Assembly: GCA_963977015.1 (NCBI GenBank)
Contig: CAXBMO010000010.1
Coordinates: forward strand, 96,001-160,000
DNA length: 64,000 nucleotides
From: an uncultured bacterium
GTDB lineage: Bacteria; Verrucomicrobiota; Verrucomicrobiia; Verrucomicrobiales; DEV007
Direction: 5' to 3'
In this document: in pieces, positions 33,001 through 36,000 of the stretch
How the letters are laid out: every line of letters begins with the position of its first letter
Position numbering within the stretch: the stretch's first letter is position 1
Made by a program: the position numbers

Positions 33001-36000
33001 CTCGCGCCTGGTATGGTGCCAAACGGCGCGAGCGAGAACGATCTTCTCAAGGTCCTTGCCGTCTCTGACAAAGTCCTTCACGGATTTCTTATGGGAGACC
33101 CGAATGACGTCCTGAGCAATAATCGGGCCTTCGTCCAGATCCGCCGTCACATAGTGACTCGTGGCGCCGATGATTTTGACGCCTCGCTCGTAGGCTTGAT
33201 GATATGGCTTGGCTCCGATAAATGCCGGGAGAAATGAATGGTGAATGTTGATCACCTGATTCGGAAAGGCGGCGACGAAGGAATCGCTCAAGATCTGCAT
33301 GTAGCGGGCCAAAACGACGGTATCGATCCGGTTTTCTTTGAGCAGCGCGATCTCAGCCGCTTCCTGATCCGCCTTGGTCTCTTTGGTGATCGGGAAATGA
33401 TGAAACGGGATTCCAAAGCGTTCTGCATCTCGGCGAAGCTTTTCGTGATTCCCGATGATCAGAGGAATTTCCACCTCCAACTCACCGCTTTCGTGACGAG
33501 CCAGGAGATCATACATGCAGTGGATGTCTTTAGAGACAAACAGCGCCATTCTCGGTTTCTCGTCTGAAAAGTAGACCGAACTCTCCATGCACTCGAAGGG
33601 GCGGGTAAGGTCGCGGATGGCGCCTTTGAGCGATTTTCGAGGAATCAGAAAACCCTCAAGCTCCCACTCCAGTCTCATGAAGAACACGTTGGCTTCAGAA
33701 TCGACGTGTTGGTCGAGGTGGACGATATTGCCCCGGTTTCGATACACGAAGTTCGAAAGTTCGGCGACAACTCCCGAGCGATCGGGACAAGACATGAGGA
33801 GAATGGCGGTGGCCATGGTTGGGCGGGGAGGTGAGCAAAAAAGTGCTCGAGGGGGGAATCGAACCCCCACGGGTTGCCCCACAGGATCCTTAATCCTGCG
33901 CGTCTACCAATTCCGCCACCCGAGCATTCAATGGTGTCTGGTTAACAGGGGACGGAAAGGAAGCGAAAGGCGGGCACTTGGCAAGTATTCTTTGTGACTA
34001 ATTGTGTGGAATTTCGTGATGAGATTATGAGTGCAAAGTGAAGTTTTCCGACAGCGAGAAGGGGCTAGAGCGTTGATAGTGGTTCATCTTTGAGTTCCAA
34101 CCCCCAAACTTCCATCCGCTACGGCGTCATTATCCCCGTTTACAATGAGGAGGAGTGTCTGGGCCTGGTGTTGGACGAATTGCGGGAGGCGTGGCCCGGG
34201 GGGCGGTATGAGGTTGCTGTCGGACTGAATGGGGCGATCACGGATCGGTCGGGTGAGATTGCCCGTGAGCGGGGCGCGATCGTGGGGGAAACGCCGACCA
34301 GAGGGTATGGGCACGGCTGTATTGCGGCGATCGAAGCGTTGCGAAATCAGGGAACGGACGTGGATGCCTTTGTCTTTTATGCGGGAGATGGTGCGTCTGA
34401 CCCTGAGGATTTGGCTGCGTTGCTGAAGGCGTATGAAGCAGGAAATGACCTGGTTTTGGGAACCAGAACGACTTCTCGTCGAAATTGGAAGCGGCCTTGG
34501 CGGCGTGGGCTTGCCAATCTTTTACTCGGGGCTTGGGCGACGCTTCTTTCTGGGCACGTTTATGCCGATCTTGGGCCGTTTCGGGTTGTCGACCGGCAGC
34601 TTCTCGAAAAAATGGCCCCAAAAGAACTGACTTGGGGGTGGACGATCGAGCAGCAGATCCTGGCACCGAAGTTGGGGGCAAGAATCAGCACCGTCAGAGT
34701 CGGGGAGCGCCCGCGCCTTGCCGGAGTTCAGAAAATCAGCGGAGTAAGCCTTCGGCAGACACTTCAGATTGGTTGGGAGATTGCCAAAGCGGGAATTCGG
34801 TCAGCAGGAAGGAAGTTGTAGCAGCGCGATCACTCCAAGTGGGGTGGGCCGGTTGCGATTTCGCTTCAAACTACTTGGTTCGTCGATTCCTGACGCTCTC
34901 AGCGAGGCCATCCAGCATCTTGACCGTCGTGTCCCAATCCACACATGCATCTGTGATGCTTTGTCCGTATTCCAAATTTTTGGGGTCTTTAAGCGGTTGG
35001 TTGCCAGCTTTGAGGTGGCTCTCGATCATCACGGCAACAAGATGTTTGTCCCCGGCCGAGATTCGTTTGGCCAGCTCTTCAGCAACGAGAGGCTGTCGGT
35101 TGTGATCTTTTTCGCTATTCCCGTGGCTGCAGTCGATCATGACGTGTGGGGGCATTCCGGCTTTCTCAAGCAAGGCGACAGTTGCCGCCACATTTTCCTC
35201 ATCAAAATTCGGTCCTTTGGCTCCTCCTCGAAGGATCACATGGCAGCTGTCATTCCCTTTGGTCGTCACAATCGCAGTGGTACCGCTTTTCTTGACGGAC
35301 AGAAAATGATGCGAGCTTTGGGCGGATTTGATCGCATCCACCGCGATTTTGATGTTTCCGCCGGTTCCGTTCTTAAATCCTACTGGCATGGAAAGTCCGG
35401 AAGCCAGTTCTCGATGCATCTGGCTTTCCGTGGTTCGGGCGCCGATTGCTCCCCAGGCAACCAGATCGGCAACATATTGGGGGCTAATGGTGTCGAGAAA
35501 CTCGGTTCCGGCGGCTATTCCCATATCGGCCAGCGTGACGAGGAGCTTGCGCGCCAGATGCAGACCGCGATTGATGTCGAAACTGTCGTCCAGGCCCGGA
35601 TCGTTAATAAAACCCTTCCAGCCGACGGTGGTGCGCGGCTTTTCGAAATAGACCCGCATGATAATTTCGAGGTCCTCCTCTGCGCCTTTCGCGTAGTCCT
35701 TGAGTTTTTCGGCGTATTCGAGGGCGGCCTCGGGATCGTGAATTGAGCAGGGACCGACGACCACAAGCAGTCGGTCATCCTGGCCTTTCAGGATACGCTC
35801 GGCATTTTTGCGCGCTTTCATGACAACCTCAGCGGACTCGTCAGAAAGGTGGAGTTCATCGATGATGATGACAGGGGCAATTAGTTGATCAAGGCGTTCG
35901 ATCCGAAGGTCGTCGGTTACAATTGACATGGGCAATTTTGCGAATTGAAGTGGAGGGGCGAATAAACGAATTCGCCAGAGGCTCAAACGAAAAGTTCGGA

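Follow-up and report, generated by a model that had tools for sequence, protein, structure and literature searches.

The gene for tRNA-Leu(AAG) within the analysed window, a 64,000-nt stretch of DNA from an uncultured member of the Verrucomicrobiales, probably supplies the tRNA that chiefly reads the leucine codons CUU and CUC; the single TadA of this bacterium would convert its A34 to inosine, and the gene itself would descend from a tRNA-Leu(GAG) gene. Both the deamination and the identity of the enzyme we infer from codon usage, the anticodon arm and the TadA complement, as laid out below.

The tRNA-Leu(AAG) gene and its neighbourhood

The assembly studied (G000; 51 contigs, 6.886 Mb, 56% GC, 95% complete) was searched in full with ARAGORN, which returned 59 tRNAs, 41 of them forming a full set outside an array of 18 tRNAs on contig C32. 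The housekeeping leucine anticodons are UAG, CAG, CAA, UAA and AAG, and the sole GAG tRNA is a 75-nt short-arm tRNA inside the array. No class-II tRNA-Leu(GAG) was detected by ARAGORN in the 51 contigs, in agreement with the preliminary description, which had named tRNA-Leu(AAG) as the only CUY decoder outside the array; since the assembly is 95% complete, an overlooked GAG gene is possible for this genome taken alone.

The identity of tRNA-Leu is defined by the discriminator A73 and a long variable arm. The AAG gene has both, with a 12-nt insertion at the variable-arm position and a 3' end of GAGCA, and matches positions 1-71 of the Rfam tRNA model at 55.3 bits, well over the gathering score of 29. 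Together with the loop UUAAGGA, these features make it a canonical class-II tRNA-Leu(AAG), as first described. Inspection of the gene sequence revealed no encoded CCA end.

A terminator-like T-run directly follows the gene (Table 1); a consensus scan gave one terminator-like site compared to 0.8 expected in shuffles, which weakly favours the T-run as a terminator, and a promoter scan found no promoter for the gene. The downstream neighbour is presumably of the PurU type, and its homolog adjoins the AAG gene in 11 of the 12 loci of family f1 and 3 of the 4 loci of family f5 that were examined, thus serving as a synteny anchor. On the other side, homologs of the divergent glycosyltransferase (41-44% identity, 228-236 aa) lie in the same arrangement beside the GAG gene in genomes G020 and G025. 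The glycosyltransferase is also a synteny anchor common to the GAG genomes of genus g5.

Table 1. Features of the tRNA-Leu(AAG) locus, in positions of the window
Feature	Position	Strand	Evidence
Downstream neighbour, ACT and Formyl_trans_N domains	32968..33816	-	Pfam PF00551, 141.5 bits; PF01842, 29.8 bits
T-run CUUUUUU, terminator-like, directly 3' of tRNA-Leu(AAG)	33836..33842	-	Sequence
tRNA-Leu gene, anticodon AAG	33843..33925	-	ARAGORN; Rfam RF00005; sequence
Anticodon stem-loop CAGGA-UUAAGGA-UCCUG, presumed TadA substrate	33882..33898	-	Sequence
Anticodon AAG	33889..33891	-	ARAGORN (anticodon at gene position 35); sequence
A34, presumed deamination site	33891	-	ARAGORN; sequence
Upstream divergent neighbour, family-2 glycosyltransferase	34138..34818	+	Pfam PF00535, 41 bits

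Distribution of AAG and GAG in the Verrucomicrobiales

Of 151 Verrucomicrobiales genomes, AAG is present in 108 and GAG in 40, with 3 unresolved, by patterns that detect only the D-arm types GGTA[G/T]ACRC; 10 extra pattern matches were not tRNAs and were rejected. A smaller, different sample had given AAG in 34 of 41 genomes. An additional GAG gene beside AAG, a possibility raised earlier, occurs in none of the 151 genomes within the same D-arm types. The two anticodons are thus mutually exclusive in 148 of the 151 genomes, as a functional replacement would predict. At the gene level the proposed replacement of GAG is supported: no other class-II tRNA for CUY accompanies AAG in G000 or in the 108 AAG genomes among the 151.

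GAG is the state of the outgroup. A single clade comprising all GAG genomes of the order was not rejected on the RpoB tree (p-AU 0.327). The GAG groups include f4, f3 and g5+g7; if these formed one basal grade, AAG would have been gained once and not in several events. The TadA tree, which was not used as a species tree, groups the GAG genera of family f1 with family f4 (support 85-92, without a star). A second family of the class, f11, also has tRNA-Leu(AAG). The AAG gene probably arose, without a change of locus, from an ancestral tRNA-Leu(GAG) gene, by a change that would comprise G34A and a remodelling of the anticodon arm (A31-U39, A38 and, frequently, C32).

Leucine codon usage and the proposed inosine at A34

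In the proposed mechanism, the gene would be transcribed with A at wobble position 34, TadA would deaminate this A34 to inosine, just as in tRNA-Arg(ACG), and the tRNA-Leu(IAG) so formed would pair at the third codon position with U and C and weakly with A. Inosine is suggested by the heavy use of CUC, an arm like that of a proven I34 substrate, a loop close to that of tRNA-Arg(ACG) and the presence of a single TadA.

Across 2819 long ORFs of G000 (GC3 of 66%), the leucine codon shares are CUC 30.1, CUG 29.2, UUG 21.8, CUU 15.0, CUA 2.2 and UUA 1.7%, so that CUC keeps the top rank given to it earlier (30.7%, with CUU at 14.3%). It makes up 25% of the 573 leucine codons in 27 translation-apparatus genes. 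In rpoB, at least half of the leucine codons are CUC (52-77%) in 12 of 37 AAG genomes, among which the CUU share is as low as 2-6%; the maximum was observed in G032 (CUC 77%, CUU 6%). The CUC-rich rpoB genes of AAG genomes fit a reader that pairs I with C, not one with A34. When GC3 was allowed for in a naive regression (37 vs 13 rows), AAG genomes exceeded GAG genomes by 5.2 +/- 1.9 points in CUU use, with no change in CUC; a CUU shift in the same direction has been reported (Katanski 2026). The codon bias of highly expressed genes was dropped as a test of I34, U-ending codons rising in all four-codon boxes with no specific signal.

The anticodon arm of the G000 tRNA is identical to that of a tRNA-Leu(AAG) of the Streptococcaceae, in which family I34 is proven; the records that carry this very arm are titled Pseudolactococcus piscium and Candidatus Actinomarina. 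The G000 arm is one base away from the Streptococcus arm (U32 vs C32). The TadA enzymes of S. pyogenes and S. pneumoniae make I34 in tRNA-Leu(AAG) (published; Katanski 2026 among the sources), and the loop UUAAGGA fits YUAMGRA, the loop consensus of the two-substrate S. pyogenes TadA (Wulff 2024). The loop of the local tRNA-Arg(ACG) is CUACGGA; the leucine loop of families f2 and f6 departs from it at position 35 only, that of G000 at positions 32 and 35. Compensatory anticodon-stem pairs (CAGGA/UCCUG, CAAGA/UCUUG, CAUGA/UCAUG and CUAGA/UCUAG) indicate that the stem is under constraint.

Only 0.12-0.14 of the sampled words were present in 24 RNA runs. Among Logan contigs of four metatranscriptome runs (X1, X2, X3 and X19), three span the tRNA, all in the A form, with 0 differences in X19 record 9 and X3 record 19 and 2 differences in X2 record 17. 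Their flanks are unlike those of G000, so that these contigs stem from relatives, as either DNA or precursor. At position 33891 the assembled contigs, which cannot show a minority edited form or the mature tRNA, list no T>C.

The main alternative is that A34 stays unmodified and reads CUU by A:U pairing and CUC weakly, with tRNA-Leu(UAG), which is encoded in G000, helping by four-way wobble. An AAG tRNA of an orthogonal system with unmodified A34 was reported to read CUU at 4.3% and CUC at 1.5%, and a published study describes all ANN tRNAs as functional in E. coli without severe cost. Moreover, the S. pyogenes tRNA-Leu(AAG) is left unedited by E. coli TadA in vitro, so that a given TadA will not necessarily accept a tRNA-Leu(AAG). 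However, we consider an unmodified A34 unlikely in view of the top rank of CUC in G000, the CUC-rich and CUU-poor rpoB genes described above, and an arm equal to those of proven TadA substrates. Four-way wobble is further disfavoured by the result of a search for CmoB, which was not found in G000 (best match 28.7 bits vs a 275-bit cut-off), making the extended-wobble modification cmo5U on the UAG tRNA unlikely.

TadA and the residue aligned with E. coli R152

The TadA of G000 (contig C3, C3:357798-358352, 184 aa) scores 169.7 bits on the equivalog model NF008113, with a cut-off of 150, and is matched by TadA chains in the PDB at E 1e-45 to 1e-33. No other protein of G000 passes this model, as expected from the single TadA reported before, and this TadA has a single match in 148 of the 151 genomes of the order. 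It is very improbable that another enzyme deaminates or otherwise modifies A34: three further CDA-fold deaminases are available in G000 (on contigs C2, C40 and C15) and the TadA alanine discussed below is not a general rule, but these candidates reach only 37-70 bits on the TadA model, one of them is RibD (291.9 bits), the motifs of the remaining two suggest base deaminases, and in Streptococcus TadA alone suffices (published). Least credible of all is that the short-arm tRNA-Leu(GAG) of the array, whose possible role in CUY decoding had been raised before, is the real CUC/CUU decoder of G000 and the AAG gene secondary: this tRNA has GAG and A73 and passes the Rfam tRNA model, but at 42.2 bits compared to 55.3, with an odd T-loop (UGCAAAU) and without a long variable arm, and the array cannot be a general CUY decoder because it is unmatched (at E <= 1e-15) in 83 of the order's 108 AAG genomes, family f2 showing a match in 0 of its 36 AAG genomes.

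Within the order, 45 of 45 AAG genomes have Ala at the TadA position that aligns with E. coli R152, and 25 of 25 GAG genomes have Arg, Lys or Gln there. According to a published review, E. coli-type TadA requires U33-A34-C35-G36, and R152 is proposed to narrow the C35 (base-35) pocket. Alanine as a general determinant of AAG was rejected: f11, a second lineage of the class that carries AAG, has Lys in 12 of 12 genomes, as do its GAG neighbours, and Arg occurs despite AAG in Streptococcus oralis (the source of the Streptococcus TadA in our alignments), Pseudolactococcus and Aminivibrio. In addition, the GAG genome G152 has Ala. Failure of the rule in f11 and Streptococcus leaves it as only a lead. 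On the RpoB tree, only two independent contrasts within the order support the link of Ala with AAG; the three independent pairs show the Ala state in the same direction in two and no difference in one, a number with which a sign test cannot reach significance. The association within the order allows a testable hypothesis to be framed for the widening of the TadA substrate range. If the change from R152 to Ala was the route, reverting this residue would make TadA single-substrate again. The site has already been mutated in adenine base editors (R152P).

Spread beyond the order

A scan of species genomes yielded at least 120 tRNA-Leu(AAG) loci; all 120 matches listed are true tRNA-Leu(AAG) genes, and at least 15 phyla are represented among them. 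The gene is also present in public records titled Akkermansia and Akkermansiaceae. The preliminary description regarded the order as an extension of bacterial tRNA-Leu(IAG). Our literature search found no paper naming Verrucomicrobia for tRNA-Leu(AAG) or IAG, although published supplementary lists may already include them. The occurrence of AAG in f11 and in at least 15 phyla makes the Verrucomicrobiales one of many undescribed lineages rather than an exceptional case. Inosine-type leucine decoding, although known already, appears to be far more widespread than the literature says, and published wording such as 'almost all in Bacilli' puts the spread of tRNA-Leu(AAG) too low. More tentatively, I34 in tRNA-Leu may have arisen many times, in at least 15 phyla including GC-rich ones and with nearly the same arm (GA-CUAAGGA-UC), and the Verrucomicrobiales may have passed from GAG to AAG with a change from Arg/Lys to Ala at the R152 position of the TadA RNA-binding helix; taken jointly, we regard these two propositions as possible rather than probable.

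The clade that includes the Akkermansia-titled records, a much-studied gut genus, probably uses a second inosine tRNA, a point of relevance to codon-usage models, to the annotation of tRNA-seq data and to heterologous expression in this clade. With 108 AAG and 40 GAG genomes, the order offers a natural experiment on the effect of I34 on CUU and CUC usage in a GC-rich setting, opposite to the AT-rich Lactobacillales.

Comparison with known systems

The closest parallel is the tRNA-Leu(IAG)/TadA system of the Lactobacillales (Oenococcus oeni, Streptococcus pyogenes and S. mutans), in which a class-II AAG tRNA likewise replaces GAG, a single TadA is present, CUU use is raised and the arm is the same except for C32 in place of the U32 of G000. 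AAG and GAG never co-occurred in the families studied by Katanski 2026. In contrast to the AT-rich Lactobacillales, G000 is GC-rich, with CUC as its top leucine codon, whereas all genera with a fixed ANN tRNA were described as having 60-70% AT (Raval 2026). The systems also differ at the R152 position of TadA, which is Ala in the G000 lineage and Arg in Streptococcus, and in that I34 is proven for the lactobacillalean tRNA-Leu(AAG) and predicted for that of G000.

The canonical tRNA-Arg(ICG)/TadA pair presumably shares its enzyme with the leucine tRNA. The loops, CUACGGA and YUAAGGA, are both flanked by G30-A31 and U39-C40, and position 35 is C in the arginine tRNA compared to A in the G000 leucine tRNA. 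Eukaryotic tRNA-Leu(IAG), modified by ADAT2/ADAT3, has the same anticodon and decoding, I34 reading U, C and A while a U34 tRNA covers the A- and G-ending codons; ADAT2/ADAT3 is a heterodimer with relaxed sequence requirements that depends on the whole tRNA, whereas the G000 TadA, with 184 aa, is of the homodimer type. Finally, in Mollicutes and organelles, tRNAs with unmodified A34 (superwobble) likewise carry a genomically encoded A34 in a four-codon box, but these are reduced genomes with minimal tRNA sets, in contrast to the 6.9 Mb, 41 non-array tRNAs and TadA of G000.

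Leucine tRNAs and codon usage of the source genome

ARAGORN called two tRNAs in the window, one of which is the tRNA-Leu(AAG) gene dissected in the feature table; it scores 55.3 bits against the Rfam tRNA model (gathering score 29, model 1-71). Its CCA end is not gene-encoded, and the T-run after its 3' end is terminator-like in a consensus scan in which shuffles also yield one such site. Three further species of the family (G061, G101, and G149) carry this 83-nt gene with 100% identity. Soil and freshwater metatranscriptome contigs (runs X3 and X19) match the tRNA at 33844-33925 over all 82-85 bases, with different flanks.

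The window corresponds to C10:96001-160000 of genome G000, whose assembly (51 contigs, 6.886 Mb, 95% complete, 56% GC) has 59 tRNAs by ARAGORN. Across all contigs, its Leu anticodons outside a tRNA array on contig C32 are UAG, CAG, CAA, UAA, and AAG, and GAG is absent there. In a set of 2819 ORFs that do not overlap and span 300 codons or more, Leu is encoded by CUC (30.1%), CUG (29.2%), UUG (21.8%), CUU (15.0%), CUA (2.2%), and UUA (1.7%). The preliminary description is thus borne out in that the housekeeping tRNA-Leu(AAG) is real and robust (ARAGORN, Rfam, and sequence), is the sole CUU/CUC tRNA outside the array, and faces CUC as the top Leu codon. A set of 27 ORFs, taken by place and first residues as ribosomal proteins, EF-Tu, EF-G, RpoB, and RpoC, contains 573 Leu codons (CUC 25%, CUU 22%), showing that CUC is freely used where speed matters; codon use of this set cannot tell I34 from A34, because U-ending codons rise in all of its four-codon boxes. 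CmoB was not found in G000 (best 28.7 bits, cut-off 275).

Features of G000 discussed in the text
Feature	Location	Strand	Basis
tRNA-Leu(AAG)	window 33843-33925	minus	ARAGORN
Acceptor stem GCUCGGG	within 33843-33925	minus	sequence
D-arm, bacterial tRNA-Leu type	within 33843-33925	minus	sequence
Anticodon arm CAGGA-UUAAGGA-UCCUG	within 33843-33925	minus	sequence
A34	window 33891	minus	sequence
Long variable arm, standard T-arm, A73	within 33843-33925	minus	sequence
tRNA array, 18 tRNAs	C32:2797-5590		ARAGORN
Four array tRNAs with Leu anticodons	C32:3124-3460 and 3904-3978
Extra tRNA-like genes (examples)	C32:3811-3881, 4437-4507, 5351-5424, 5435-5507		Rfam
Weak tRNA-Sec-like match in array	C32:4156-4230		32.5 bits, under cut-off 47
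YrlA (Y RNA-like) match adjoining array	C32:2524-2589		39.6 bits, under cut-off 69
94-nt "tRNA-???", two-base anticodon (gc), close to contig end	C2:642-735		ARAGORN
TadA, 184 aa	C3:357798-358352		NCBIfam TadA equivalog, 169.7 bits, cut-off 150

Distribution of AAG and GAG in the order

A fixed sample of 151 genomes was searched with three patterns, each joining the tRNA-Leu D-arm to the anticodon; an unusual extra tRNA-Leu gene could escape this census, because the patterns recognise D-arms GGTA[G/T]ACRC only. Genomes are called AAG or GAG after the anticodon of their class-II tRNA-Leu for CUC and CUU. ARAGORN called tRNA-Leu(aag) at 30/30 best BLAST loci and called none of ten further pattern matches a tRNA; therefore, no genome among the 151 carries both anticodons on these D-arms. 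One AAG genome, G006, has two identical tRNA-Leu(AAG) copies with 833 bases between them (L019, C1:1909381-1912462) and two tRNA-Arg(ACG) copies 165 bases apart, so that both presumed TadA substrates are duplicated.

Anticodon of the class-II tRNA-Leu for CUC and CUU in families f1-f8 of the order
Family	Genomes	AAG	GAG	Without assignment
f1 (incl. G000)	37	33	4 (genera g5, g7)	0
f2	36	34	0	2 (G001, G056)
f3	1	0	1	0
f4	36	0	35	1 (G098, 83% complete)
f5	35	35	0	0
f6	4	4	0	0
f7	1	1	0	0
f8	1	1	0	0
Whole sample	151	108	40	3

The array was considered as a general CUC/CUU decoder of the order. One of its tRNAs does carry GAG (75 nt, short variable arm, T-loop UGCAAAU, 42.2 Rfam bits), and array matches at E <= 1e-15 occur in 29/151 genomes, 25 AAG (G000 included) and 4 GAG. 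Such matches are lacking in 83/108 AAG genomes and in all 36 of family f2, which rules this role out. Each of the four tRNAs in the array that bear a Leu anticodon is 74-75 nt long with a short variable arm; they share the D-arm GCCCAA..GCAGAGGC and the T-loop UGCAAAU in place of UUCGAAU. Rfam sees more tRNA-like genes in the array (C32:2500-6000, locus L374) than ARAGORN.

Polarity and locus history

Among 141 genomes sampled across the phylum, GAG-type arms were found in all 94 genomes of other classes and in 18/31 genomes of the class's other orders. On the RpoB tree, the arms of the nearest outgroups (f10, f15, and f17) end in GUACGU-UUGAGG or GUACGC-UUGAGG, and the former ending is also that of most f4 genomes and of g5, so that GAG is the older state. 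The AAG gene shares its acceptor stem with the f4 GAG gene but has a rebuilt anticodon arm. A PurU-type gene (type by inference) adjoins the AAG gene at 11/12 f1 and 3/4 f5 loci examined, and in f1 a divergent GT2 gene does so too. In both g5 genomes a homolog of the latter flanks the GAG gene and is arranged alike, so that here, at least, the GAG gene and the f1 AAG gene occupy one and the same locus. No shared neighbours were found within 3 kb in g7 (0/2), f4 (0/6), f3, f2, f6, f7, or f8. Well-supported branches of the RpoB tree (55 rows, rooted with outgroups) force three anticodon changes, one of them outside the order; a topology uniting every in-order GAG row in one clade was not rejected (p-AU 0.327).

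Occurrence beyond the order

Scanning 185,579 species genomes with a 31-position pattern (D-arm plus UAAGGA) gave at least 120 loci, and ARAGORN called tRNA-Leu(aag) at 120/120 matches listed. Grouped by record titles, the matches listed include at least 56 loci in Bacillota (16 Streptococcaceae, 7 Lactobacillaceae, and at least 23 Clostridia), 16 in Verrucomicrobiota (9 Akkermansiaceae, 2 Verrucomicrobiaceae, and 1 Opitutales), 9 in Cyanobacteriota, 6 each in Pseudomonadota and Cloacimonadota, 5 in Synergistota, 4 each in Actinomycetota and Myxococcota, 3 in Planctomycetota, 2 each in Fermentibacterota and Hydrogenedentota, and 1 each in Sumerlaeota, Bdellovibrionota, Bacteroidota, and Mycoplasmatota, with 3 loci not placed; these counts are not frequencies, because match order is arbitrary, and single matches may be binning errors, since many genomes are MAGs. 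At positions 30-32 and 39-40, which the pattern left free, G30-A31 with U39-C40 occurs in 95/120 matches listed, 84 of them with base C32.

The text of Raval 2026 lists ANN tRNAs for Firmicutes, some Proteobacteria, and Tenericutes, and gives 60-70% AT for every genus with a fixed ANN tRNA. Verrucomicrob* is absent from the running texts of Raval 2026, Katanski 2026, and Ehrlich 2021, as is Akkermansia from the first two. A full-text literature search found no relevant paper on inosine/A34 or tRNA modification in Verrucomicrobia or Akkermansia; tRNA databases may list these genes without comment, because the genomes are public.

TadA and its R152 column

G000 has four CDA-fold deaminases, and only the C3 protein passes the TadA equivalog, in agreement with the single TadA reported earlier; its best PDB relatives are TadA chains (E 1e-45 to 1e-33). 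Among the other three, one is RibD (291.9 bits, own model) and two small proteins reach 69-70 bits with the TadA model.

Of the 148 genomes of the order with a TadA match, 70 (45 AAG and 25 GAG) yielded an extracted sequence. A single column, A167 of G000 (in FFAEARQ), splits the groups without overlap: all 45 AAG genomes have Ala, whereas the 25 GAG genomes have Arg (21), Lys (3), or Gln (1). In the alignment this column falls on the first R of RR in E. coli ffrmrrq, and so corresponds to E. coli R152, and on P of TadA-8e. E. coli R26 and R152 are described as narrowing the C35 pocket and possibly contacting C35, and R153 as reading G36 (review PMC10586758); the R153 column, read by eye, is Arg in 70/70 rows.

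On the RpoB tree, Ala tracks the anticodon in 2/3 independent pairs, the third showing no difference. As a general AAG determinant, Ala was rejected. In a comparison outside the order (29 matched, G187 left out), family f11 is AAG in 13/13 genomes and has Lys in 12/12 extracted TadAs, as in its GAG neighbours, and one GAG genome (G152) has Ala. Nine further AAG-bearing genomes came from named records, and the TadAs read in eight have Arg (Streptococcus oralis, Pseudolactococcus, and Aminivibrio), Lys (a Planctomycetota MAG and Micavibrio), Ile (Lacticaseibacillus), or Leu (Prochlorococcus and Herbinix). The apparent Ala-AAG link, weak as statistics and not general, is a testable lead rather than a finding.

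In f11 TadA (L205-L219), a family-specific LNH takes the place of the E-C/S normally present some nine residues ahead of FF in the last helix; with the retained Lys, it may be an adaptation of its own or just lineage history. In a GAG genome, G081 (C133; L092, L132), tRNA-Leu(GAG) (~18.5 kb) and tadA (22.3-22.9 kb) are separated by 4 kb on one contig, probably by chance, because its sister G037 lacks this closeness.

Predicted inosine at position 34 and comparison with known systems

Inosine is the best reading of A34. The only decoder has to handle the most frequent Leu codon. In rpoB, mean shares of Leu codons are CUC 41.7% and CUU 17.6% in AAG genomes (n=37) versus 43.5% and 9.8% in GAG genomes (n=13), and CUC makes up at least 50% in 12/37 AAG genomes (maximum 77%). 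With GC3 as covariate, in a regression that treats relatives as independent, the AAG group gains 5.2 +/- 1.9 points of CUU, with CUC unchanged. An unmodified AAG anticodon in an orthogonal system is reported to decode CUU roughly three times as well as CUC (Schmitt 2024).

Mechanistically, this is very probably the established TadA-dependent tRNA-Leu(IAG) system, in this case in genomes rich in GC, with I34 predicted. In Streptococcus, I34 of tRNA-Leu(AAG) was demonstrated in vivo, and it is formed in vitro by S. pyogenes and S. pneumoniae TadA, whereas E. coli TadA fails (Wulff 2024; Katanski 2026). The G000 loop UUAAGGA fits the S. pyogenes TadA editing consensus YUAMGRA (Wulff 2024). As the tRNA-Arg(ACG) loop is CUACGGA in G000, G024, and G006, TadA would need to tolerate only A35, plus U32 in G000. 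Records titled Pseudolactococcus piscium and Candidatus Actinomarina have exactly the G000 anticodon arm, which differs from the Streptococcus arm in a single base, U32 instead of C32.
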